A DNA stretch of 64,000 nt from Candidatus Limnocylindria bacterium (GTDB lineage Bacteria; Chloroflexota; Limnocylindria; QHBO01), in the NCBI GenBank assembly GCA_036262075.1, contig DATAJO010000003.1, positions 15,464 through 79,463 on the forward strand, in the 5' to 3' direction. The position numbers were made by a program, and so were the translations under genes. The notes beneath the pieces are model-generated. The model saw nothing but the letters and a program-made list of their open reading frames with translations. It did not search any database and was not told the DNA's origin. Shown in pieces: positions 13,076 through 25,919 of this stretch; position 1 is the stretch's first letter, and each line of letters begins with the position of its first letter.

Positions 13076-13215
13076 CGGCCTTCGCTCGACCGGTGCTCGA
13101 CGCGCTGCGGGACGAGATGGAGATCCACGTCCACCCCGCCTGAGCCGCCTGAGCGCGGGCGGGGGAGCGGCGCGGGCTGGTGGCGCGCATCGGTCTTGCA
13201 GTACCCTCAGGCGTG

Positions 13216-14181
13216 ATGGACGAGCATTCCGACACGATCCAGCCGCTCAACCCGCGCCCGCCGTACGAGCCGGGCGACGCCGATGCGTTCTACGCGCACG
13301 TCGGATCGGGCGGCAAGATCGAGGCCGACGACTGGATGCCGGACGAGTACCGCGCCGCGGTCCTGAAGTTCGTCGAGATGCACGCCAACTCCGAGCTCAT
13401 GGGCGTGCTGCCGGAGCGCGACTGGATCATGCGCGCGCCGACCCTGCGCCGAAAGCTCGCGCTGACCTCGAAGATCCAGGACGAGGTCGGGCACGCGCAG
13501 CTGCTCTATCGCGTGGCGGAGGACCTCGGCAAGCCGCGGGCGCAGATGCTCCAGGACCTGCTCGACGGCAGGACGAAGTTCCACAACGTCTTCCACTACC
13601 CGACGCGCTCGTGGGCCGATGTCGGGATCATCGCCTGGCTCGTCGACGCCGCCGCGATCGTGTCGCAGCAGGCCCTGCGCGACTCCTCGTACGCGCCGTA
13701 CGCGCGAACGATGAAGAAGATCTGCTGGGAGGAGTCCGTCCACATCATGCACGGCCGCGACGTCGTGCTGACCCTCATGAACGGCACCGGCGAGCAGCGC
13801 GCCATGGTCCAGGAGGCGCTGGACCGATGGTGGGGCCCGCTCATGCAGATGCACGGCCCGCCGACCGACCCGGCGAAGGACAAGGACCTCCACTGGGGCA
13901 TCAAGTCGAAGGGCAACGAGCAGCTGCGCCAGGAGTTCCTCTCGATCTACGTGCCGCGCATCCGTGAGCTCGGCCTGCGCATCCCGGACCCGGCGCTGCG
14001 GCTGGACGAGGCGACGGGGCGCTGGGCGTACACCGAGCCCGATTGGGCCGAGCTGAAGGCCGTCGTGACCGGCCACGGTCCCGCATCGCAGTCGCGCCTC
14101 GAGTTCCGGCGTCTCAACTACGCCGAGACACAGTGGGTGCGCGACGCCCTCGTCGGCGCAGCGGGGACCGCCGCCGCCTGA
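13216..14181 (+). CDS. paaA: 1,2-phenylacetyl-CoA epoxidase subunit A
   Basis: Strong similarity by eye to PaaA (DWMPDEYR, EMHANSELMG, QDEVGHAQLLY, WADVGIIAWLVDAAAIVSQ). Start set at ATG 13216 because the first 12 codons of the 13180 ORF have low GC3. Confidence 0.85.
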   Translation: MDEHSDTIQPLNPRPPYEPGDADAFYAHVGSGGKIEADDWMPDEYRAAVLKFVEMHANSELMGVLPERDWIMRAPTLRRKLALTSKIQDEVGHAQLLYRVAEDLGKPRAQMLQDLLDGRTKFHNVFHYPTRSWADVGIIAWLVDAAAIVSQQALRDSSYAPYARTMKKICWEESVHIMHGRDVVLTLMNGTGEQRAMVQEALDRWWGPLMQMHGPPTDPAKDKDLHWGIKSKGNEQLRQEFLSIYVPRIRELGLRIPDPALRLDEATGRWAYTEPDWAELKAVVTGHGPASQSRLEFRRLNYAETQWVRDALVGAAGTAAA

Positions 14182-14224
14182 CGGCCTGCGGCCCATGCGC
14201 GCTGCGGATCTGCGGTCTTGCGGC

Positions 14225-14632
14225 GCCGTATGCGATTTATCGGTCCGTTTGGCGCCTGAGCTGAGGTTGGGGCTACGCCTGTTCTGTTTATCGGTGCGCA
14301 CATAGCCCGGGCGGGGACGAGGACGCCTTTGGGGCTACAGGCCTACCGATACATCGCATGGGCGTCGCCGCAACAGCCACCGCGGGCGACAAACCCCCGA
14401 TATATCGCCGAGGACCCCCGGGTCCTGCGGCCCCGTATGCGATTTATCGGTCCGTTTGGCGCCTGAGCAGATGTTGGGGCTACGCCTGTTCTGTTTATCG
14501 GTGCGCACATAGCCCAAGCGGGCGCGAGGGCGCCGTTGGGGCTACAGGCCTACCGACAAATCGCATGGGCGTCGCCGCAACAGCCACCGCGGGCGACAAA
14601 CGCCCGATATATCGCCGAGGACCCTCACGCCA
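14225..14632. repeat. two tandem ~207-bp repeat units (~90% identical), each with internal inverted sub-repeats built on TTATCGG/CCGATA, sitting between paaA and paaB
   Basis: The marker gtatgcgatttatcgg recurs at 14228 and 14435, so the period is 207 bp. Sub-repeat GGGGCTAC at 14268, 14329, 14475 and 14539. Inverted pair ATGCGATTTATCGG / CCGATACATCGCAT within each unit. Confidence 0.85.
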
Positions 14633-14673
14633 CGACGAGTGCGCCGCGTCAGGGGGCGCGGTACCCTTCGGTC

Positions 14674-15054
14674 GTGACTGATCCAGTCCCGGCGGTCGAG
14701 CGCGTGTGGGAGGTCTTCCGCCAGGACGACGAGGGCGACCCGATGATCCACGCCGGGAACGTGAATGCCCCCGACGAGGAGCTCGCGACGCACTATGCCC
14801 GCGAGTTCTACGGCCGCCGCGGCGAGTCGCATCGGCTGTGGATCGTGGCGCGCGAGGCGATCACCGAGCTCGACGATCCGGACCTCCTCAAGCCGCCGTT
14901 CGACCGCAGCCACAAGAAGCCCGGCGGCTACATCATCAAGCACAAGCTCGAGGCGGCGAAGGCCCGCGCCGCGGAAGGGACACCCGCCGAAGGGGCCGCC
15001 GCGGAAGGGGCCGCCGCCGAAGGGACACCCGCCGTCGAGGGGGCGACCGAGTGA
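14674..15054 (+). CDS. paaB: 1,2-phenylacetyl-CoA epoxidase subunit B, with Ala/Glu/Gly-rich C-terminal extension
   Basis: GTG 14674 in frame within the 14536..15054 ORF (upstream part crosses the repeat). VWEVF...HAGNV...WIV matches the PaaB core. Tail AAEGTPAEGAAAEGAAAEG is atypical. Start codon uncertain. Confidence 0.7.
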   Translation: MTDPVPAVERVWEVFRQDDEGDPMIHAGNVNAPDEELATHYAREFYGRRGESHRLWIVAREAITELDDPDLLKPPFDRSHKKPGGYIIKHKLEAAKARAAEGTPAEGAAAEGAAAEGTPAVEGATE

Positions 15055-15824
15055 CGGTGGCCGATGCGCTCGACGCGCCGGCACGCGCGGCGCTCGCGGA
15101 GCTGCTCCTGACGCTGGCCGACGACGAGCTCGTCATCGGCTTCTGGGACTCCGAGTGGACGGGCATCGCGCCGGTGCTCGAGGAGGACGTGGCGACGAGC
15201 TCGATCGCGCAGGACGAGATCGGCCATGCCAAGGCGCTGTACGAGCTGCTCGCCGAGCTGACGGACGATGATCCGGACCGGATCGCCTTCGGCCGTGCCG
15301 CCGAGGAGTACCGTCACGCCGCGCTGCTGAACCACGCGCGCGGCGATTGGGCGTTCAGCGCCGCCCGCCGCTACCTGTACGAGACCGCCGATGCCGTGCG
15401 GCTCGCCTCGCTGGCCCGCTCGGCGCATGCGCCGCTCGCCGCGCTGGCGGGGAAGATCCGGCGCGAGGAGACGTACCACCTCATGCACGCCGATGCCTGG
15501 CTGCGCCGCCTGGCCGATGCGCCCGCGCCCGCCTCGGATCGCCTGGCCGATGCGCTGCGCACGCTGTGGCCGGACGCGCAGGAGGTGTTCGCGCCCCTCG
15601 AGGGGGAGGCGGAGCTGACGCGCCGCGGCCTCCTGTCGGAGCCGATGACCGACCTGCATGCCGCCTGGCAGCGCTCGGTCCGGCCCGTCCTCGAGCCGAT
15701 CGCCGGTTCGCTCGAGGAGATCGGGCCCAGCCCGGACGGGCGGCAGCGGCGAACCGAGGACTTCCGCTGGCTCCACCGCGAGATGACGATGGTCGCGCGC
15801 TCGGTCGAGGGGGCGACGTGGTGA
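15051..15824 (+). CDS. paaC: 1,2-phenylacetyl-CoA epoxidase subunit C
   Basis: GTG 15051 overlapping the paaB stop (GTGA). LADDELVIGFWDSEW, AQDEIGHAKALY and EETYH motifs of PaaC. Confidence 0.8.
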   Translation: MTVADALDAPARAALAELLLTLADDELVIGFWDSEWTGIAPVLEEDVATSSIAQDEIGHAKALYELLAELTDDDPDRIAFGRAAEEYRHAALLNHARGDWAFSAARRYLYETADAVRLASLARSAHAPLAALAGKIRREETYHLMHADAWLRRLADAPAPASDRLADALRTLWPDAQEVFAPLEGEAELTRRGLLSEPMTDLHAAWQRSVRPVLEPIAGSLEEIGPSPDGRQRRTEDFRWLHREMTMVARSVEGATW

Positions 15825-16363
15825 GCGCCACCGCACGGCCGGCCGCCGCCTCCGACGCGGAGCGCCGCATCTGGGACGAGCTCGCCGCCATCCCGGACCC
15901 GGAGATCCCGGCCATCGGCCTCGTCGACCTCGGGGTCATCGGCTCCGTGGCCGTCGACGACGACGGCGCGGCGTGGATCGAGCTGCTGCCGACGTTCGTG
16001 GGCTGCCCGGCGATCGGGGTCATGCAGGCCGAGATCGAGCGCCGGGTCGGAGCGCTGGGCGTGGCGAAGGCGGTCGAGGTGCGGCTGAGCTTCGACCCGC
16101 CGTGGACGTCGGAACGGATCACGCCCGAGGGTCGCGAGCGGCTCCGCCGCAGCGGCTTCGCCCCGCCGGTCATGCCTCCGCCGACCGAGGCGGGGAGCGG
16201 GCTGACCGAGCTCGACGTGCTCGACACGCTGCCGCCCGCCGAGTGCCCGTACTGCGGGTCCCGCAACACGACCCTCGAGAACCCGTTCGGGCCGACCCTG
16301 TGCCGCGCGATCTACCACTGCGCCGACTGCCGGCAGCCGTTCGAGCAGATGAAGCGCGTCTAG
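15818..16363 (+). CDS. paaD: phenylacetate-CoA oxygenase subunit PaaD (MIP18/SufT-like with C-terminal zinc ribbon)
   Basis: GTG 15818 overlapping the paaC stop. IWDELAAIPDPEIP, LGVIGSV, and C-terminal CPYCGS...CADC. Confidence 0.8.
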   Translation: MVSATARPAAASDAERRIWDELAAIPDPEIPAIGLVDLGVIGSVAVDDDGAAWIELLPTFVGCPAIGVMQAEIERRVGALGVAKAVEVRLSFDPPWTSERITPEGRERLRRSGFAPPVMPPPTEAGSGLTELDVLDTLPPAECPYCGSRNTTLENPFGPTLCRAIYHCADCRQPFEQMKRV

Positions 16364-16378
16364 CCCGACCCGGCGGGC

Positions 16379-17398
16379 TTGCGGCCCCACGGTAGGCTGT
16401 CGCCGATGGCCCTGCCGGTCGCGCCGCTCGGTGCGGACCCCGCGCAGCCGATGCTGCGCGGCGACGCGGTGGAACGCGACGCGGAGGTCGCCGCCCCATC
16501 GCGCGCGTGGGCGCACCTGCGTCGCAGCCCGGCCTTCTGGTTCGGCGCCATCGTCGCGACGGCGATCGTGCTGCTCGCCATCGGCGCGGACGTCGTGGCC
16601 CGGTACGACCCGAACATCGCGATCCGCGGGAGCGGCCTCTCGGCCGACGGGCGTCCCGTCGGCCCGTCCGAGGAGTTCTGGCTCGGCACCGATCGGCTCG
16701 GGCGCGACTACGCGAGCCGCCTCCTCCACGGCGCGCGCACATCGCTGATCGTCGCGCTCGGCGCGAACGCCGTCGCCGCCCTCATCGGCACGCTCGTCGG
16801 CGCGACCGCCGCATACGCCGGCTCGCCGCGCGTCACGCTGCGGGTCGGGCGCTGGCGGAGGATCGTCGCTCTGCCGGTCGAGGCGCTGCTGATGCGCGCG
16901 ACCGATGCGCTGCTCTCGTTGCCGGTGCTGCTGCTGGCGATCGCCCTCGCCGCGATCCTCGGCCCGAGCCTGGTGCTGCTGACGATCGTCATCGCCGCCG
17001 TGTGGTGGACGACGACCGCCCGGATCGTCTTCAGCCAGGTGCGCGTCATCCTGGCGCAGGACTTCATCGAGGCGGCGCGGGCCATCGGTGCTCGGCCGCT
17101 TCGCATCCTCGTGGTGCACGTGCTCCCGCACATCGTGCCGCTGGTGGTCGTGTATGCCACGCTTGGCATCGCCGCGGTCGTCCTGTTCGAGTCGACGCTC
17201 TCGTTCCTCGGTGCGGGTCCGCCGCCGCCGGCGGCGTCGTGGGGAACGATGATCGCCGAGCACGCCAGCTACTACCGCTCCGACCCGCGACTGCTCCTCC
17301 TGCCCGGTGCCGCGATCGCGCTGACCGTGCTGGCCTTCAACCTCCTCGGCGACGCGCTGCGCGACGCCCTCGACCCGCGCGTCGCGAGCCAGGGGTGA
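16379..17398 (+). CDS. ABC transporter permease (peptide/nickel type, DppC/OppC-like)
   Basis: 339 aa, 6 TM helices, permease signature region, C-terminal NLLGDALRDALDPR. Confidence 0.8.
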   Translation: MRPHGRLSPMALPVAPLGADPAQPMLRGDAVERDAEVAAPSRAWAHLRRSPAFWFGAIVATAIVLLAIGADVVARYDPNIAIRGSGLSADGRPVGPSEEFWLGTDRLGRDYASRLLHGARTSLIVALGANAVAALIGTLVGATAAYAGSPRVTLRVGRWRRIVALPVEALLMRATDALLSLPVLLLAIALAAILGPSLVLLTIVIAAVWWTTTARIVFSQVRVILAQDFIEAARAIGARPLRILVVHVLPHIVPLVVVYATLGIAAVVLFESTLSFLGAGPPPPAASWGTMIAEHASYYRSDPRLLLLPGAAIALTVLAFNLLGDALRDALDPRVASQG

Positions 17399-17428
17399 CC
17401 CCGTCGGCCGCCGATCCGTCGCGCGGCA

Positions 17429-17453
17429 GGAATAGGGAATTCTCCCGATGCGC
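17429..17453 (+). promoter_or_regulatory. copy 1 of a conserved ~24-33 bp motif GAATAGGGAATTCTCCCGATGCGC, upstream of the substrate-binding-protein gene
   Basis: 22 of 24 identical to 23256..23279; contains the imperfect dyad GGGA-ATTC-TCCC. Confidence 0.4.
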
Positions 17454-17530
17454 CGCGGTGGCCCGCGCCGCATCGTCCGACCGACGGCGACCGCCGGCCG
17501 CGGCGGTCCGCGCGCAGGAGGAGCAGATCG

Positions 17531-19207
17531 ATGTCCCGAGCCCATCCGACGCGACCATTCATCCTCGCTCTCACCGTGCTGCTGGTGCTTGCCGCGTGCG
17601 GAGGGGAGGGCACCGCGTCACCCTCGGAGGAGGCACCGGGCTCCGACAGCCCTCCCGGGTCGCAGGCGCCCGAGGGTGGCGGCACGATGACCATCGCCTG
17701 GGAGGCGGACATCCAGTCGATGGATCCCGCCATCGCCTATGACTACGTCTCGATCCCGGCGGTCCACATGGTGTTCGAGTCGCTCATCGGCTACGACGAC
17801 GGGACGACGCTCGTTCCCGTCCTGGCCGAGGCGATGCCGGAGGTCAGCCCGGACGGGCTCACGTACACCTTCGTCCTCCGGCCCGGCGTCAACTTCGTGA
17901 AGCCGGACGGGTCGGTCCTGCGCGAGATGACCGCGGACGACGTGGTCTACTCCCTCAACCGCGTGCTCAACCCCAACCTGACCCCGACGCCGTCGCCGGT
18001 GGCGTCCTCGTTCTTCGCCCAGATCGAGGGCGGCCAGGCGGTGCTCGACGGCGAGGCCCATGAGGCGACCGGCGTCGTCGCGGTCGACGACCGCACCGTC
18101 GAGATCACGATCCTGTCGCCGAACCGGGCGTTCCTCAACGTCCTGGCCATGACGTTCGGATCGGTGGTCCCGGAGGGCGAGGCGGGAACCGACACCGCCG
18201 CCTTCTCGGCGGCCCCCATCGGCACCGGCCCGTACTACATGGCCTCGTACACCGCCGGGCAGGCGGCGCACTTCGTGCGCAACCCGCACTACTGGGGCCC
18301 GGCACCGGCCATCGCCGAGGTCGAGTACGAGGTGGGCGTCGACACCGTCACCCAGACGCAGCGCGCCCAGGCGAACACCCTCGATCTCATGGGCGACTCG
18401 ATTCCGACCGGGTCGCTGCCCGAGGTCCGCGACGACCCCGAGTACGCCGAGCGGTTGATCGAGGAGGCGACCGTCGCGGTGAGCTACGTCTCCATCGACG
18501 CCACGATCGAGGACCCGCCGCTCAACGACGTGCGGGTCCGTCAGGCGATCAACCACGCGATCGACAAGGAGAACCTCGTCGCCGTGGTCGGTGGGCGCGG
18601 GGAGCCCGCGAACTGCATCTTCCCGCCCGCCATCTCGGCTCACGATCCAGGATGCCAGCCGTACGACTACAACCCGGAGCGGGCGCGTGAGCTGCTGGCG
18701 GAGGCCGGCGTCCCCGACGGCTTCGCGACGACGTACTACACCGACACGACCGAGGACTCCGTCGCGCTCGCCCAGGCGATCCAGCAGGACCTGGCGGCCG
18801 TCGGGATCGACGTCGAGATCGTGAGCCAGGAGTTCGACGTGCTGCTCGAGACGATCCTCGTGCAGGGCAACGCGCCGCTCCTCGGCATCGCGTGGATCCA
18901 GGACTACCCGGACCCGTCCGACTTCTACGATCCGATCCTGTCGTGCGCGGCGGTCGGCGGCGGATTCAACACCTCCTGGGCGTGCTCCGAGGAGGCCGAT
19001 GCGATCGCCATCGAGGCGCTCTCCATGACCGACGAGGCGGAGCGCGACGAGGCGTACCGAGAGGTCCAGCGACTCGTCATGGAGGAGGCGCTGTGGGTGC
19101 CGACCTACTTCCCGACGGTCACGCACCTGCACTCCGATCGGCTGGAGGGAGCCTACTTCCACCCGGTCTGGAGCTGGGAGATCGTCGACTACTCGCTGAG
19201 CGAGTAG
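17531..19207 (+). CDS. ABC transporter substrate-binding lipoprotein (peptide/nickel family 5)
   Basis: Signal peptide plus lipobox (LAACGG), 558 aa, family-5 solute-binding domain features. Confidence 0.85.
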   Translation: MSRAHPTRPFILALTVLLVLAACGGEGTASPSEEAPGSDSPPGSQAPEGGGTMTIAWEADIQSMDPAIAYDYVSIPAVHMVFESLIGYDDGTTLVPVLAEAMPEVSPDGLTYTFVLRPGVNFVKPDGSVLREMTADDVVYSLNRVLNPNLTPTPSPVASSFFAQIEGGQAVLDGEAHEATGVVAVDDRTVEITILSPNRAFLNVLAMTFGSVVPEGEAGTDTAAFSAAPIGTGPYYMASYTAGQAAHFVRNPHYWGPAPAIAEVEYEVGVDTVTQTQRAQANTLDLMGDSIPTGSLPEVRDDPEYAERLIEEATVAVSYVSIDATIEDPPLNDVRVRQAINHAIDKENLVAVVGGRGEPANCIFPPAISAHDPGCQPYDYNPERARELLAEAGVPDGFATTYYTDTTEDSVALAQAIQQDLAAVGIDVEIVSQEFDVLLETILVQGNAPLLGIAWIQDYPDPSDFYDPILSCAAVGGGFNTSWACSEEADAIAIEALSMTDEAERDEAYREVQRLVMEEALWVPTYFPTVTHLHSDRLEGAYFHPVWSWEIVDYSLSE

Positions 19208-19253
19208 CGAACGCGGGGCCGCCGTCGGGGGGCGGCGGCCCAACCGCGCGCGC

Positions 19254-20198
19254 ATGATCCGCTACATCGGGCGTCGGCTGGCGTGGAGCGTGCTGGTCCT
19301 GGCCTTCGTCGCCGTCCTGACCTTCATCCTCATCTACGTCCTGCCCGGCGACCCGGCCCGGGCCGTGGCCGGCATCCACGCATCGGCGGAGGACGTGGCG
19401 CGCATCCGCGCGGCGCTCGGGCTCGACGAGCCGTTCGGGGTGCAGTTCGCCCGCTACGTCGGTCGCCTGGCGACCGGCGATCTCGGCTTCTCGTTCCATC
19501 GGCGGGCGGAGATCCTGCCGCTCCTCGTCGAGCGCTTCCCGGCGACGCTCCAGCTCGCCCTCGGCGGACTCGTCGTCGGCCTCGCCATCGGGCTGCCGAT
19601 GGGCGTGCTCTCCGCCGTCCGGCGCGGGACGAGCGTCGATCGCGCCTCGACGGCGACGACCGCGGTGCTCGTCTCGATCCCGTCGTTCTGGCTCGGCTAC
19701 GTGATCCTCGACGTGCTCGCCTTCCGACCCCTCGTGGCATGGGACGTCGCCATCTTCCCGATCGGCGGCTACGAGCCGTGGAGCCTGCGGCACCTCGCCT
19801 TACCGGCCCTCACGCTCGGTGCGGGCCTGGCGGCCTACTACGCCCGGCTGACCCGGACCGCGATGGTCGATCAGCTCGGCAGCGACTATGTCCGGACGGC
19901 GCGCGCCAAGGGCCTCGAGGGCCGGCTCGTCACCTGGCGCCACGCGTTCCGCAACGCGATGCCGACGCTCGTCACCCAGGTCGGCATCGACATCGGCCTC
20001 CTCCTCGGTGGCGTGGTGGTCGTGGAGCAGGTGTTCTCGTGGCCGGGCATCGGTCGGCTCGCCGTGGAGGCCATCGTGCAGACCGACCTGCCCCTGATCC
20101 TCGGCACCGTGGTGTTCGCGACGCTCATGATCGTCGTCGCCAATATCGTCACCGACGTGGCGGTCGCCGTCCTGGAGCCTCGGCTGCGCCGCGCCTGA
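19254..20198 (+). CDS. ABC transporter permease (DppB/OppB-like)
   Basis: 314 aa, 6 TM helices; MIRYIGRRL start typical of DppB; permease signature region. Confidence 0.85.
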   Translation: MIRYIGRRLAWSVLVLAFVAVLTFILIYVLPGDPARAVAGIHASAEDVARIRAALGLDEPFGVQFARYVGRLATGDLGFSFHRRAEILPLLVERFPATLQLALGGLVVGLAIGLPMGVLSAVRRGTSVDRASTATTAVLVSIPSFWLGYVILDVLAFRPLVAWDVAIFPIGGYEPWSLRHLALPALTLGAGLAAYYARLTRTAMVDQLGSDYVRTARAKGLEGRLVTWRHAFRNAMPTLVTQVGIDIGLLLGGVVVVEQVFSWPGIGRLAVEAIVQTDLPLILGTVVFATLMIVVANIVTDVAVAVLEPRLRRA

Positions 20199-20265
20199 CG
20201 CTCACCGCGCCTGGCGCTCGCCGCGCCTGGCGCTCGCCGAGCCTGACGCTCGCCGCGCCCGACGG
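20193..20265. repeat. tandem 16-bp repeat GCCTGRCGCTCRCCGM x ~4.5
   Basis: Units at 20193, 20209, 20225, 20241 and a partial at 20257; the first unit overlaps the permease stop codon. Confidence 0.8.
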
Positions 20266-20300
20266 CCGGGCGGCCCTTGTGCCGGTGCTGATAATCATCC

Positions 20301-23231
20301 ATGCCCGGGCGGATCTCGTGCCCGACGCTCGTCGGGCGGGAGGGAGAGCTCCAACGTATCCTGGCGCATCTCGCCGGTGAGTCCCCGGCACTCCTCGTCG
20401 TGCGCGGCGACGCCGGCATCGGCAAGACGCGCCTGCTCGACGAGGCGCTCGGCTCGGCCCGTGCCGGCGGGGCGACCGTCCTTGCCGGGGCGTGCATTCC
20501 CTTCGCGGGCCGGCGGCTCCCGTTCGGGCCGATTCTCGACGCCCTCCGGATCGCCGACGACGGGCCCGCGGCGACGGGCCTCGTGGCACTGCGCGCCGAC
20601 CTTCGACGGGTCGTCGACGCCGCCCCTCTCGGGGAAGACGACGGCGTCTCGCACGCCCGGGTCCTGAATGGCGCGGTCGACGCGCTCGAGCTTGCGGCGG
20701 GCGAATCGGTCGTCGTCCTGAGTGTCGACGACCTCCACTGGAGCGATGCCCCCACCCGCGATCTGCTGCTCGCCGTCGCCTCGAGCCGGCGCTCCGCCCG
20801 CGTTCGCCTCGTCGCCACGCTCCGGACCGATGAGGAGCACGAGGCGCTCAAGCCGATGCTGGCCGAGCTGACGCGCGCCGGGCTGCTCGACGTGCTCGAC
20901 CTCCAGCCGCTCGGCGTCGGCGCCGTGGACGAGCAGGTCACCGGCATCCTCGGGGCACCGCCCGCGAGAACCCTGCTCGACGCGGTGGCGCGCCGGTCGG
21001 GGGGAAATCCGTTCTTCGTCGAGGAGCTCGTGGCGGCGGCGCGTGGGGGCGATGCGGTCCTGCCCCCGAGCGTCGGCGAGGTGCTGCTCGTCAGGCTCGC
21101 GTCGCTCCCGGACGACGTGCTGGCGCTGCTGCGGACGATGGCGGTCCTCGGCGACAGCGTGCCGGACGCCCTCCTCGCGGCGGTGAGCGACGACGACCCT
21201 GCGACGGTCGCCGCGCGCCTGCGAACCGCGGAGGACGCGCACGTCGTCCGCATCGACCGTCGCGCCGGGACATATGCGTTCCGCCACGCGCTCATGCGCG
21301 AGGTGCTCTACGCCGACCTGCTCGCCGGTGAGCGGACCGCGATGCACGAGGCGGTCGCGCGCATCCTCGAGTCGGACCGTGCCAAGCGGCTGCTCTCACC
21401 CATGGCCCGGTCCCTCGCCCTGGCGGTCCACTGGGACGAGGCGGGGGACGTCGCGCGGGCCATCCCGGCGCTCGTGGCCGGCGCCCAGGCGGCGACGGCG
21501 GCGAACGCCCACGCCGACGCCCTGGAGCTCTATCGGCGCTGCCTGAGGCGGCTCGCGGATGACCCGAGCGCGGTCGAGACCGCCGGCAGCCGGCTCGATG
21601 AGCTCTACGCGCGCGCGGCGCACGCGGCCTTCCTGGCGGACGACACCGGCATGGCGATCGATCTCGCGAGACGCGCGGTCGAGCTGGCGGGGACGGACGA
21701 TGCAGCCCGCTCGGCGCTGCTCCACCAGCGGCTGTGCGAGTACCTCTGGGAGCACGGCGCGGGCGTGGAGTCGCTCGACATCGCGCGTCGCGCGTACGAG
21801 GTCGTGCCGGCCACGGCCGATCCGGCCATCCGCGCCGCCGTGGTCGGGTTCTGGGCATCGGCGCTCTGTGTCCTGAGCCGCTACGAGGAGGCCATCCCCG
21901 TCGCCGAGGAGTGCATCGAGATCGGACGCGCCCTGTCGGACCCGGCGACGATCGGTCTGGGGCTGGCGTGCCGCGGGGCGGCCGTGGCGGGCCTCGTCGA
22001 CGTCGAGGCCGGCGCGCGCGATTGCGCCGAGGCGATCGAGATCGCCCGAACCTCGAGCGAGGCCGATACCCAGCTCATCGCCTACATGAACGGGTCCTGG
22101 GTGATCGGCGTGCTGGCCGGGGATGCCGAGCGCGCCCTGGCGCTCGTCGCAGACTGGCAGGAGCTCCAGCGCCGGAGCGGACTCGAGCGGACGCGCGGCA
22201 TGTGGATGGCCGGATTCGCGGGTGACCTGCTGCTCCGGCTCGGCCGCTGGGACGAGGCGGACGAGGTGCTGAGCGAGGCACTGCGGCTCCCGTTCCGCGG
22301 CCCGTCGCGGCACGAGGTGGTGGCCAATGCCGCCATCATGCGCACCTGGCAGGGCCGGCTGGAGGAGGCCGATGCGCTGGCGCGCGAGGCCCTCGCGCTG
22401 GCCGCGCATGCCGGCACACTCCAGTTCACGGGGCTGAGCCACGCGATCGCCGTCGACGTCGCGCTCTGGCGCGGCGACACCGATCGCGCCGTCGAGCTGG
22501 TCGACGCCGCCATGCCGACCGTCGATGCCACCGAGGACCCGCTCTACACGCGCCACTTCTACGCGGCCGCGGCGCGCGCCTGCATCGAGCGCCGGGAGCG
22601 CCTGCGCGGGCGCCGGTCCGAATCGGAGCGCGAGGCGCTCATCCGGCGCGCGGAATCGTTCGCGCAGCGCGCCCGGTACGCTGGCGTGCTGAACGTCACG
22701 GCCCGGGCTCCGGAGACGCGCGCCTGGACCGCGCAGGCCGCGGCCGAGGTGGCACGGGCCACCGCGACCTTGACGGCCGCAGAGGAGTGGGACCGAACCC
22801 GCGACGCGTGGCACGCGGTCGGGGATCGAGCGCACGAGGCGTACTCGGCCCTCCGCTCGGCAGAAGCATCGCTGGCGTGCGGGCAGCGCGGCCGGGCGGC
22901 CGAGTCGATGCGCGCCGCACGCGAGCTCGCCGCCACGATCGGTGCGGAGGCCGTCGTCCGATCGGCCGATGCGCTCGCGGAGCGGGCTCGACTGCGTCCG
23001 GCCGGGGCCGCGGGCGCGACGACCGGCTTCGGCCTGACGGTGAGGGAGCTCGAGGTGCTCGACCTCGTGGCGCGCGGGCTGACGAATCGCGAGATCGCCG
23101 CGACGCTGTTCATCAGCGAGAAGACGGCCGGCGTCCACGTCTCGAACATCCTGGCGAAGCTCGACGTCACGAGCCGGGCACAGGCCGCGGCCATCGCGGT
23201 TCGCCACGAGCAGGAGCTGGCGAAGCACTGA
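20301..23231 (+). CDS. LAL-type (MalT-like) LuxR-family regulator: N-terminal P-loop NTPase, central helical repeats, C-terminal LuxR HTH
   Basis: Walker [15 protein letters not shown]; C-terminal [43 protein letters not shown]. Confidence 0.85.
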
Positions 23232-23255
23232 TCGGGGTGCGACGAGAGCGCCCTC

Positions 23256-23279
23256 GAATACGGAGTTCTCCCGATGCGC
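23256..23279 (+). promoter_or_regulatory. copy 2 of the conserved motif GAATACGGAGTTCTCCCGATGCGC, upstream of the PKD-domain gene
   Basis: See 17429..17453; located 25 bp after the LAL regulator stop. Confidence 0.4.
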
Positions 23280-23308
23280 GCGGCGGCCGGGCAGCCCACG
23301 GTTGACGC

Positions 23309-23989
23309 GTGTCCGTACGCATGCTGGCGCCCGCCGGGCCCATCGGTGCGACTCGCGCCCCGTCGGTCGGAGCCAGCCTCCGGCTGCCGCCACGGGACTG
23401 GCTGCGCGCATCGTGGGAATGGGACGATGGATCCGTCGAGCCGGTCGCGGCGCCATGGGCCTCGATCGTTCGGATGCGCACGGTCCATCGCTACGCGCGA
23501 CCCGGGGTGTACCGCGTCCGCCTCCGGGTCGAGGGCGACGGGGGGTGGTCGTCCGAGATGGGCGAGCGATACGTCGTGGTCAGCGGTCCCGGGCAGCTCG
23601 CCGCGTCGGGCTGGATTCGCGATCCGGTCCACCGCGCGGTGCCGGTCGGTTTGCTGCTCACGCCATCCGACGGTGCCCGGCTCGGATCGGCGCTGCTCCG
23701 ATGCCTCGTTCCCGACGGCGAGCTCGTCGCCTCGGACCTCGCCTGGATGGTCGCACCGGATCCCGGGTCGGTGCATTTCGGGGGTCACGCACGGCTCGGG
23801 ACGGAGGCCTCGTCCGACCGGCCGTACCGGGTCGACGTCGCGCTCGCCGCTCGCGAGCACCGCGGCGCGCGTCCTCACCTGACCGTCAGCGTCTATGCGG
23901 CCGGGCGCCGGCCCGGGAGCGACGCGCCCGAGATCAGGGTGTCGGGCGACCTGCGGCCGGGCGGGATCGATCTCGGGAGTCCCGGTTGA
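23309..23989 (+). CDS. PKD-domain-containing hypothetical protein
   Basis: WEWDDGSVE...HRYARPGVYRVRLRVEGDGG resembles the PKD consensus (WDFGDGS...HTY..GTYTVTLTV.D). Moderate GC3; no clear signal peptide. Confidence 0.4.
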   Translation: MSVRMLAPAGPIGATRAPSVGASLRLPPRDWLRASWEWDDGSVEPVAAPWASIVRMRTVHRYARPGVYRVRLRVEGDGGWSSEMGERYVVVSGPGQLAASGWIRDPVHRAVPVGLLLTPSDGARLGSALLRCLVPDGELVASDLAWMVAPDPGSVHFGGHARLGTEASSDRPYRVDVALAAREHRGARPHLTVSVYAAGRRPGSDAPEIRVSGDLRPGGIDLGSPG

Positions 23990-24104
23990 GGGCCGTTCAC
24001 CGATCCTGAGCGTGACGGGATCGGGATGCCCGGCTTCGCCGAGGCGCTCCCGCTGGCGTACGGCATCGGCGTTCGGCATCGGCGTTTGCGCTACCCTTCG
24101 GCGC

Positions 24105-25919
24105 ATGTCGATCGACCCTGACGAGCTGGGCGGCGACGCCGCGACCGACCTCGGGTCGGGCCACGGCGACCACCTCGCCGCGATGCGTCACAGCGCGGCG
24201 CATATGATGGCCGCGGCCGTGCTCGAGCTGTTCCCCGACGCGAAGCTCGGCATCGGTCCCGCCATCAAGGACGGCTTCTACTACGACTTCGACCTGCCGC
24301 GCCCGCTGACGCCGGCCGACCTCGAGCAGATCGAGGCCAAGATGCGCGAGCAGCAGGCCGCCGACCTGACGTTCGAGCACTCGAAGGACCTCCCGCGGGA
24401 CGAGGCCGTCACGCTGCTCGAGGAGCGCGGTCAGCCGTTCAAGGTCGAGATCGTCAACGACCTCGATCCCTCGGAGGGTCCGACGGTCTCGTTCTACCGG
24501 CACGGCTCCTTCGAGGACCTGTGCCGCGGCGGGCACCTCGACTCCACGAGGCAGCTCGGGGCGTTCAAGCTTTTGAACACGGCCGGCGCGTACTGGCGCG
24601 GCGACGAGACCCGGCCGATGCTCCAGCGCATCTACGGCACCGCCTGGGACACGCAGGAGGAGCTCGACCGCTACCTGTGGCGGCTCGAGGAGGCGAAGAA
24701 GCGCGACCACCGCAAGCTCGGCCGCGAGCTCGACCTGTTCACGTTCCACCCCGAGTCGCCCGCCGCGCCGTTCCTCCATCCGCGGGGCATGGCCATCTGG
24801 CGCGCCCTCGAGGACTGGTCGCGCGAGGTCCGCTCGGGCGCCGGCTTCCACGAGGTCCGCACGCCGAGCCTCGTGCGCAAGGAGCTGTGGGAGACGTCGG
24901 GCCACTGGGCGAACTACCAGGACAACATGTTCGTCCTCGACGACTACGACCACGTGTCCGGCCTCAAGCCGATGAACTGCCCGGAGGAGATCCTCATCTA
25001 CCGCACCCGGGCACGCTCGTATCGCGATCTGCCGATGCGCTTCAGCGACTACTCGGTCCTGTTCCGCAAGGAGCGCACCGGCGTCCTGGCCGGGATGTTC
25101 CGCGTGCGGCAGCTCACCCAGGACGACTCGCACGTCTTCTGCCGCGACGACCAGGTCGACGACGAGCTCCGCCTCGCCCTGTCGCTCGTCCGCAAGCAGT
25201 ACGCGCCGTTCGGGTTCGAGCCTCGGGCCAAGCTGGCGACGCGGCCGGAGAAGCGCATCGGCTCCGACGAGTTCTGGGAGCGTGCCGAGCAGCGCCTGCG
25301 CGACCGCCTCGAGGAGGACGGCATGTCCTACGCGCTCGACGAGGGCGGCGGGGCGTTCTACGGGCCGAAGATCGACATCTTCATCGAGGACGCGCTGGGC
25401 CGGGAGTGGCAGATGGCCACGATCCAGGCCGACTACCAGCTGCCGCAGCGCTTCGACCTCGAGTACCGCGCCGCCGACGGCAAGTTCGAGCGCCCGGTCA
25501 TCGTCCACTACGCGATCTACGGCTCGTTCGAGCGGTTCATCGGCATCATCACCGAGGAGTACGCCGGGGCCTTCCCGTTCTGGCTGGCGCCGGTGCAGGT
25601 CGTGGTCGTGCCGATCGCCGATCGCCACCTCGAGTACGCCGAGTCGGTGCGGGCCGCCCTGGCCGATGCCGGCCTGCGGGCGGAGGTCGACGCGCGCTCC
25701 GAGCGCATGCAGGCCAAGCTGCGCGAGGCGCAGGAGCAGAAGATCCCGGTCATGGTCGTGGTGGGGGACCGCGACGCCGAGGCCGGTGCCGTCTCGCCTC
25801 GGCTGCGCACCGGCGAGTCGTCGCAGGGCGTCCCGCTCGCCGAGTTCGTCGCCGATCTCGTCGCGCGCAACGCGGTCCGCGAGCTGTGGCCGGCGCCGCC
25901 GAGCGGTCCGGAGTCCTGA
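24105..25919 (+). CDS. thrS: threonine--tRNA ligase lacking the N-terminal TGS domain
   Basis: ATG 24105 inside the 23895..25919 ORF. HSAAHMMAAAV marks the editing domain; class II motifs FRVRQLTQDDSHVF and GAFYGPKID; anticodon-binding domain present. Confidence 0.9.
   Translation: MSIDPDELGGDAATDLGSGHGDHLAAMRHSAAHMMAAAVLELFPDAKLGIGPAIKDGFYYDFDLPRPLTPADLEQIEAKMREQQAADLTFEHSKDLPRDEAVTLLEERGQPFKVEIVNDLDPSEGPTVSFYRHGSFEDLCRGGHLDSTRQLGAFKLLNTAGAYWRGDETRPMLQRIYGTAWDTQEELDRYLWRLEEAKKRDHRKLGRELDLFTFHPESPAAPFLHPRGMAIWRALEDWSREVRSGAGFHEVRTPSLVRKELWETSGHWANYQDNMFVLDDYDHVSGLKPMNCPEEILIYRTRARSYRDLPMRFSDYSVLFRKERTGVLAGMFRVRQLTQDDSHVFCRDDQVDDELRLALSLVRKQYAPFGFEPRAKLATRPEKRIGSDEFWERAEQRLRDRLEEDGMSYALDEGGGAFYGPKIDIFIEDALGREWQMATIQADYQLPQRFDLEYRAADGKFERPVIVHYAIYGSFERFIGIITEEYAGAFPFWLAPVQVVVVPIADRHLEYAESVRAALADAGLRAEVDARSERMQAKLREAQEQKIPVMVVVGDRDAEAGAVSPRLRTGESSQGVPLAEFVADLVARNAVRELWPAPPSGPES

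Follow-up and report, generated by a model that had tools for sequence, protein, structure and literature searches.

A conserved inverted repeat upstream of a transporter gene and a PKD-domain gene in a Limnocylindria genome, most likely the operator of the adjacent LAL-type regulator

The DNA analysed here is a 64-kb stretch ("the window") of a metagenome-assembled genome (MAG) annotated as Candidatus Limnocylindria bacterium (Chloroflexota). It contains a locus for an ABC transporter, a large LuxR-type regulator of the LAL family and a PKD-domain protein, and in this locus a short motif occurs twice—once upstream of the gene for the substrate-binding protein (SBP) of the transporter (site 1) and once between the LAL gene and the PKD gene (site 2). 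The motif is a real and conserved regulatory element and, judged from sequence comparison, most likely the operator of the adjacent LAL in two promoters. We consider it likely that these form an activator-dependent promoter pair, by which the neighbouring LAL would drive the SBP gene, the following gene for an OppB-like permease and its own gene, being thus autoregulated, together with the PKD gene.

The two predicted operators are located as follows:

17431-17451, plus strand: predicted operator of site 1, AATAGGGAATTCTCCCGATGC, kept upstream of the SBP gene in relatives
23257-23277, plus strand: predicted operator of site 2, AATACGGAGTTCTCCCGATGC, kept between the LAL stop codon and the PKD gene in relatives

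The pair of motifs to which an initial annotation of this DNA had drawn attention is real. Compared as 24-mers, copy 1 (GAATAGGGAATTCTCCCGATGCGC, 17430-17453; its start had been given as 17429, which is off by one) and copy 2 (GAATACGGAGTTCTCCCGATGCGC, 23256-23279) are identical at 22 of 24 positions. No third copy with up to three mismatches was found on either strand of the window, and 100 dinucleotide-preserving shuffles of the window yielded 0 matches; the exact 10-mer CTCCCGATGC is present in the window only at sites 1 and 2. A sequence-only scoring profile built from 18 sites assigns 46 bits to each window site; the runner-up in the window reaches 9.4 bits. As had been stated, each site precedes a plus-strand gene, with the ATG of the SBP gene (17531) 79 nt past the end of site 1 and the GTG of the PKD gene (23309) 31 nt past the end of site 2. 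The likeness that had been perceived beyond the core (..GCGCCGCGGTGGCC vs ..GCGCGCGGCGGCC) is not kept in relatives, and the similarity 3' of the core is probably GC-rich chance.

The motif is an imperfect 7-4-7 inverted repeat, AT(A/C)GGGA-N4-TCCCGAT, composed of the following parts:

17432-17438, plus strand: left half of site 1, ATAGGGA
17439-17442, plus strand: spacer of site 1, ATTC, with the dyad centre between 17440 and 17441
17443-17449, plus strand: right half of site 1, TCCCGAT
23258-23264, plus strand: left half of site 2, ATACGGA
23265-23268, plus strand: spacer of site 2, GTTC
23269-23275, plus strand: right half of site 2, TCCCGAT

Symmetric positions are matched at 6 of 7 in site 1, at 5 of 7 in site 2 and at 4-6 of 7 in 13 orthologous sites selected independently of the pattern. 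The half-site centres are 11 bp apart, in keeping with class II operators of LuxR/GerE-type regulators, which are inverted repeats with a half-site distance of about one helical turn. The symmetry that had been proposed for the core is present, but not in the form GGAG-TT-CTCC; the conserved dyad is ATnGGGA-N4-TCCCnAT. Its right half, together with the following GC, is invariant, and the left half is variable.

Orthologous loci were collected via the SBP protein and not via the motif; they extend from 80% down to 56% SBP identity and from 59% to 50% LAL identity. The order OppC-SBP-OppB-LAL-PKD is kept in these relatives. The motif is found in the OppC-SBP spacer of every one of them (site 1 orthologs in contigs L002, L004, L006, L007, L008, L009, L029, L041, L086 and L095) and between the LAL stop codon and the PKD gene in every relative whose contig extends that far (site 2 orthologs in L002, L004, L006, L008, L009, L041, L058 and L086). 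The consensus over the 13 orthologous sites is aaTA.Gga.T.CTCCCgATGc, with varying flanks. Since the motif is kept while its flanks diverge, the element is evidently under selection. Two to three copies of the motif are present per related locus. Weaker extra copies precede the gene for a 1375-aa cadherin/Big/PKD protein in L002 (12344-12368, minus strand), the OppC gene in L009 (2275-2332, plus strand) and an open reading frame (ORF) for a 62-aa Cys-rich product in L043 (749-806, minus strand); hence, the regulon differs between species, and it may be centred on surface proteins. One of the contigs, L086 (CAYYDA010000063.1), is filed under an "uncultured Steroidobacteraceae" MAG; it is 97.6% identical over 6.3 kb to the Limnocylindria-type L006 and is probably a mis-binned contig.

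Beyond these loci, an exact-pattern scan with WWTASGGNNTYCTCCCGATGC over 185,579 species-representative genomes yielded 108 matches in 106 stretches, with about 70 expected by chance from the information content of the pattern. Roughly half of the matches are chance or coding and stem from AT-rich genomes; the coding ones include a group in the KMSKS region of aminoacyl-tRNA synthetases of Flavobacteriaceae, and a group of matches in Clostridia apparently lies inside a conserved coding sequence. The remaining matches are intergenic, skewed to AATAGGGAAT[TC]CTCCCGATGC, and followed by a characteristic hexamer at the right distance, as described below. The intergenic motif occurs in four phyla—Actinomycetota, Acidobacteriota, Proteobacteria and Chloroflexota—with carriers in Microbacterium, Leifsonia, Streptomyces, Acidimicrobiia, Jatrophihabitans and others among the Actinomycetota. 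The motif is, thus, not private to the peptide transporter/PKD locus, for which it had first been thought to define a small regulon. Scanned Limnocylindria genomes have 2 matches each, and no genome in the scan has many.

In all Limnocylindria sites, a hexamer with A at its second and T at its sixth position lies 19-20 nt past the last C of the motif; examples are CATCGT, CATCCT, GATCCT, CACGGT, GACACT, CATTCT and GATGCT. In the lower-GC Chloroflexi contig L014, the hexamer is TATACT. The same A2/T6 hexamer stands at offset 19 or 20 in 55 of the 70 scan matches from loci with more than 55% G+C, and the offset profile is sharp, with 20 occurrences at offset 19, 36 at offset 20 and 0-2 at most other offsets, over a background of about 1 per offset. 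For the window, this defines two predicted promoter elements:

17471-17476, plus strand: CATCGT, the putative -10 element of the promoter at site 1; transcription is predicted to start at about 17483, giving a 5' untranslated region of about 48 nt with GGAGGAG before the ATG
23297-23302, plus strand: CACGGT, the putative -10 element of the promoter at site 2; transcription is predicted to start at about 23309, the G of the GTG start codon

The start codons downstream of site 2 bear on the same point. A GTG or ATG follows the hexamer by 6-7 nt in the window (GTG 23309) as well as in L002, L004, L006/L086, L008, L009, L041 and L058, and the same leaderless layout is found at the actinobacterial L030, L097, L101 and L107. 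As the transcript would begin here, a leaderless PKD mRNA is predicted. No alternative ATG stands close downstream of the leaderless start in L008, L041 and L058, and gene callers chose the leaderless start in L006 and L008. With a transcription start placed 7 nt past the hexamer, the dyad centre would be at -42.5 at both window sites; a position near -42.5 is indicated because the start codons at site 2 independently place the start point. By this prediction, the motif takes the position of a class II operator, which is centred at -41.5/-42.5 over the -35 region. There is no -35-like hexamer at either site, the motif occupying that position. A sigma-70 consensus scan of 17000-24000 gave no match, as is to be expected of hexamers that are GC-rich variants; the -10 assignment comes from comparative position. 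For the actinobacterial sites, TAGGGAT, 25 nt past the motif, was considered as the -10 element and rejected in view of the offset profile, which points to the shared nAnnnT at 20 nt.

The protein encoded between the two sites has the build of a LAL regulator. AAA_16 matches residues 10-169 (E = 2.5e-19), and the P-loop sequence GIGKT of this N-terminal NTPase can be read from 20414-20453; GerE, the C-terminal helix-turn-helix domain, matches residues 912-966 (E = 2.1e-18); and the 976-aa chain also gives a weak match to TPR_7, a helical-repeat domain. Homologs match TPR_12, TPR_MalT and WHD_MalT; they are named generically only, and NCBIfam matches are at domain level only.

The linkage of motif and regulator was counted by tblastn with the window LAL and its GerE domain in 8-kb blocks around those sites that passed a filter of more than 55% G+C plus the hexamer (55 sites). 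A GerE/LAL ORF starts or ends within 500 nt of the motif at 24 of these 55 filtered sites, with an abutting ORF at 2 more, and 33 of the 55 have such an ORF anywhere in the block. The filter missed true sites with an adjacent GerE/LAL gene in L014, L054 and L110. Among the other approximately 50 scan matches, a regulator was found only at L048, where the motif lies inside the LAL gene and looks like a chance match.

Two main layouts recur: "LAL stop - motif - next gene", as at site 2 of the window, and "motif - small Arg/Glu-rich ORF - LAL". The second is seen in Microbacteriaceae and relatives (L012, L013, L022, L034, L044, L076, L102 and L109), in which the small ORF codes for 63-105 aa without Pfam match. 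Two loci have another type of regulator: in L054 (4557-5930, minus strand; Acidobacteriota MAG) and L017 (1284-2732, minus strand; Actinomycetota MAG), the divergent neighbour of the motif is a protein of 457 or 482 aa that combines HD_5 (HD-GYP-like) with GerE and is not a LAL. The element shared by the motif-linked regulators is, therefore, the GerE domain. The downstream targets vary between lineages and include DUF3303, glyoxalase, MFS, DUF1330, SCO4226-like, DUF5995, TonB-dependent receptor, molybdopterin oxidoreductase, Peripla_BP_6, RTX, GNAT, methyltransferase and peptidase S58 proteins as well as proteins of about 880-1,100 aa without Pfam domains.

The Microbacteriaceae-type loci show, in addition, a conserved CCTYAG 10-11 nt past the motif and, in many cases, a CTnAGG that precedes the motif by about 16 nt. 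Two explanations of these CTnAGG/CCTnAG flanks were tried and rejected: as a closing RNA helix, their pairs do not covary, and as stop codons, their CCGAGG variants contain none.

Based on these observations, the following course of regulation is proposed. The adjacent LAL of 976 aa, which is a STAND-type ATPase like MalT, would bind AT(A/C)GGGA-N4-TCCCGAT through a dimer of its GerE-type helix-turn-helix domains. Centred near -42.5, the bound site would overlap the -35 region; the promoter itself shows a -10-like hexamer and no recognisable -35 element. Lacking the latter, the promoter would oblige RNA polymerase to rely on the bound regulator, i.e., on class II activation as at the lux box. 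From site 1, the genes of the SBP and the OppB-like permease would be transcribed and very probably that of LAL too, amounting to positive autoregulation; from site 2, the PKD-domain gene would be expressed as a leaderless or nearly leaderless mRNA. By analogy with MalT, the LAL may respond to a small molecule connected with the substrate that the ABC importer takes up. Activation is favoured over repression because the spacing is tight across phyla. The initial annotation had suggested a lux-box-like LAL operator over the transporter and PKD genes, and positional conservation, the dyad, the fixed distance to the hexamer and the co-occurrence with GerE/LAL genes in four phyla all speak for this suggestion at the level of sequence.

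The genes concerned are the following:

16406-17398, plus strand: OppC-like ABC permease (Pfam BPD_transp_1 and OppC_N); start as called in the identical contig L001; position kept in all relatives
17531-19207, plus strand: substrate-binding protein SBP_bac_5 (peptide/nickel/opine type; Pfam, NCBIfam), the first gene after site 1
19254-20198, plus strand: OppB-like ABC permease (Pfam, NCBIfam)
20301-23231, plus strand: LAL regulator, 976 aa (Pfam AAA_16, TPR and GerE)
23309-23989, plus strand: PKD-domain protein, 226 aa from GTG 23309 (Pfam PKD_4 and PKD; translation)

The LAL gene is probably co-transcribed from site 1, given the short gaps and the lack of a terminator-like site between the genes: a scan of 17000-24000 revealed none in the spacers, its single match (17986-18006) being inside the SBP gene. 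The gap between the OppB-like gene and LAL measures 102 nt in the window vs 40-52 nt in relatives, because it is stretched by an array of the 16-bp unit CGCCGCGCCTGACGCT, of which 4.9 repeats at 20187-20264 extend across the OppB stop codon and the OppB-LAL spacer. The OppC-like gene lies upstream of site 1 and is not obviously controlled by it. The permease genes are split around the SBP gene. The ABC ATPase signature LSGGQ is absent from the window; therefore, the ATPase of the transporter must be encoded elsewhere.

Several findings weigh against the assignment of the motif to the LAL and against parts of the promoter model. The asymmetry of the motif exceeds that of a simple dimer site, and part of the conservation may be due to contacts of RNA polymerase. 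For about 22 plausible sites, the fetched block contains no regulator; many of these sites are situated at the edge of the block or contig. The GerE domains linked to the motif are 45-67% identical to that of the window LAL, which is about the identity of the latter to the unrelated solved structure 4wt0 (about 55%), and the recognition helices differ among the motif-linked regulators; the DNA-binding domains, therefore, give no independent support for a shared specificity. The motif is absent within 4 kb of four paralogous LALs (L116-L119, 33-37% identity) and, thus, marks a subset of regulators and not all LALs. As to the leaderless mRNA, the PKD start picked by the gene caller is located 12 nt (L001, L002, L004) or 3 nt (L009) downstream of the leaderless start; in L001, which is identical to the window, this alternative is the ATG at 23321 (position 8750 of L001).

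The findings on missing regulators and on the uninformative similarity of the DNA-binding domains also feed the rival explanation that survives best, namely that the operator is real but is either a repressor site occluding the -35 region or bound by a factor other than the neighbouring LAL. A site over -35 can block RNA polymerase as easily as recruit it, and the LAL-type SCO6993 has been reported as a negative regulator (PMC9628970). However, the distance from the motif to the -10 hexamer varies by no more than 1 nt over four phyla, a constancy that activators need and repressors do not, and there is no -35-like hexamer; the GerE regulator, in turn, is the only gene type that recurs beside the motif. 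On balance, we hold a repressor or a foreign factor to be unlikely.

A further rival takes the motif as the -35-side element of an alternative sigma factor, in whose regulon the LAL genes would merely be included. The fixed distance to a downstream hexamer would fit this idea, as would the invariant and asymmetric 3' part CTCCCGATGC. ECF sigma genes are indeed found directly upstream of some paralogous LAL genes, at 3384-3956 in L118 and at 3423-3950 in L119 (both Acidobacteriota MAGs), yet these are loci from which the motif is absent, and tblastn with the two ECF sigma proteins found no homolog in any motif-bearing locus. Moreover, the hexamer that follows the motif has the housekeeping form TAnnnT (TATACT in L014), and the conserved block is dyad-symmetric and, with 21 bp, reaches to about -53. 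An alternative sigma factor is, thus, quite improbable.

At the RNA level, GGGA....UCCC could form a 4-bp hairpin at site 1, as part of a structured leader or riboswitch, or CUCCC could act as an anti-Shine-Dalgarno sequence on the downstream gene, since it could pair with the GGAGG Shine-Dalgarno sequences that precede the SBP gene. The sequences fold, however, no more stably than shuffled ones (z-scores -0.6 to +1.4); RNAalifold on 18 sites returned 2 invariant pairs at -0.21 kcal/mol without covariation; L006, L007, L008 and L009 carry uncompensated changes that disrupt the GGGA/UCCC pairing; and Rfam gave 0 matches in the window and the 18 motif-bearing loci. Transcription is predicted to start only downstream of the motif, and at site 2 the gene lacks a Shine-Dalgarno sequence that could be masked. 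An RNA element is, hence, largely refuted and very improbable.

The initial annotation had also raised the option that the ATG inside the motif, in a GGAG-N8-ATG arrangement, starts a short leader ORF. This ATG is present in 13 of 13 orthologous sites, and at site 2 of the window GGAG does stand 8 nt upstream of it, but GGAG is not conserved, being replaced by GGGAAT, GGGATT, GGATTC or GGCATC at the same positions; the ORFs range from 4 to 202 aa and share nothing beyond M-R/P; and the ATG itself belongs to the half-site TCCCGAT plus GC at about -35, upstream of the predicted transcription start. Leader ORFs are scarcely credible on these grounds. Still further from acceptance, with practically nothing left in its favour, is a dispersed repeat or a mobile segment 17431-23277 with the motifs as its ends or attachment sites: the direct repeats do flank a 5.8-kb segment, but there are only two copies in the window and two or three in related loci, each in the same orientation and distance to a downstream gene and not in the many copies unrelated to gene starts of a REP/MITE-like element, no integrase or transposase was seen among the genes between or beside the sites, and an insertion is refuted by the synteny of both copies and the intervening genes in relatives down to 50% LAL identity.

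Returning to the operator of a GerE-type regulator, known systems offer several points of comparison. The lux box of Vibrio fischeri is a 20-bp inverted repeat centred at -42.5 (PMC3376562). As a class II site, it resembles the window sites in being a dimeric inverted repeat for a GerE-type domain over the -35 region; the window sites have a predicted centre at -42.5 and a half-site distance of 11 bp. The likeness is confined to dyad and position, and the motif is not filed as a lux box: it is more asymmetric, with its invariant right half plus GC, and LuxR is an acyl-homoserine-lactone receptor, in contrast to the STAND ATPase of about 1000 aa considered here. The sequence of the lux box is not known to be related to that of the window motif.

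MalT, the prototype LAL, shares with the window regulator the P-loop NTPase, the helical/TPR sensor and the C-terminal GerE domain, in line with the WHD_MalT and TPR_MalT matches of the homologs, and, as predicted here, an ABC importer under its control. MalT boxes are, however, short asymmetric repeats, GGA[TG]GA (PMC9628970), used in direct or inverted arrays, whereas each window site is a single 7-4-7 dyad; neither GGATGA nor GGAGGA occurs on either strand of the two sites, the closest sequence being GGGAGA on the minus strand.

Nearer in sequence are two operators of other GerE-type proteins. PimM, a PAS-LuxR regulator of Streptomyces, binds CTVGGGAWWTCCCBAG at the -35 hexamer of activated promoters (PMC4700089) and has, like the window sites, GGGA/TCCC half-sites flanked by T/A at -35. 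Its 16-bp palindrome has a 2-nt centre, in contrast to the 4 nt (ATTC/GTTC) that place the half-sites 2 bp further apart here, so that the motif is not a PimM operator; the sensor of PimM is a PAS domain and not a STAND ATPase. The DosR/DevR box of Mycobacterium, with the consensus TTSGGGACTWWAGTCCCSAA (PMC2275270), is likewise palindromic, its GGGA(C) half-sites being recognised by a GerE-type domain, and the solved structures related to the LAL C-terminus include the DNA-binding domain of DevR. The box differs from the window sites in half-site spacing and flanks, and DosR is a two-component response regulator. The existence of GerE-type operators with GGGA/TCCC half-sites over -35 counts in favour of reading the motif as a GerE operator.

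Searches of the available literature for the motif strings and for LAL operators retrieved no description of this site. Most likely, we are dealing with an undescribed but widespread pairing of an operator with GerE regulators that is, in kind, an ordinary LuxR-type activator site. A bolder idea, which we put forward as a possibility and rather doubt, is that the 21-bp site together with its fixed -10 hexamer constitutes a portable operator-promoter cassette and a promoter class of its own, having moved with one GerE lineage on varied sensors by descent or horizontal transfer. Under this assumption, the same nearly invariant site would serve STAND/LAL ATPases and HD-GYP-like HD_5 sensors in Chloroflexota, Actinomycetota, Acidobacteriota and Proteobacteria, and the strong conservation of the asymmetric CTCCCGATGC at -41 to -32 would suggest a joint reading by the regulator and RNA polymerase, where, for example, the GerE domain could replace sigma region 4 at -35.

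LALs are abundant, and apart from MalT and a few regulators of antibiotic clusters, hardly any is known to have a defined operator. For an uncharacterised LAL of an uncultured Chloroflexota lineage, the present analysis provides a precise candidate operator, a promoter geometry, two predicted targets and a probable autoregulation. The same motif beside related regulators in culturable Actinomycetota—Microbacterium, Leifsonia and Streptomyces—makes the proposal genetically testable there, and the motif can serve as a sequence signature for finding such regulons in genomes and metagenomes. Culturable carriers are Microbacterium arabinogalactanolyticum JCM 9171 (L013), Leifsonia sp. McL0618 (L022) and Streptomyces sanglieri JCM 12607 (L067).

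Concerning the wider neighbourhood, the gene order in the window is paaA, paaB, paaC, paaD, OppC-like permease, site 1, SBP, OppB-like permease, LAL, site 2, PKD protein and threonyl-tRNA synthetase (thrS). This arrangement (window 13180-25919; L004, L008, L009), in relatives with an additional ORF of 76 aa between paaABCD and the OppC gene, is kept across Limnocylindria to 50% LAL identity. The paaA-paaB spacer (14214-14627) contains a tandem duplication of a 207-bp unit with 93-94% identity, in which Rfam found nothing. It has no counterpart in any related locus, and the Logan contig L001 starts inside its second copy; the duplication may be real or an artefact of assembly. At the paaB-paaC junction, a 15/30-bp tandem repeat at 14967-15034 lies inside an ORF (14536-15054), the translation of which repeats AAEG(T/A)P.

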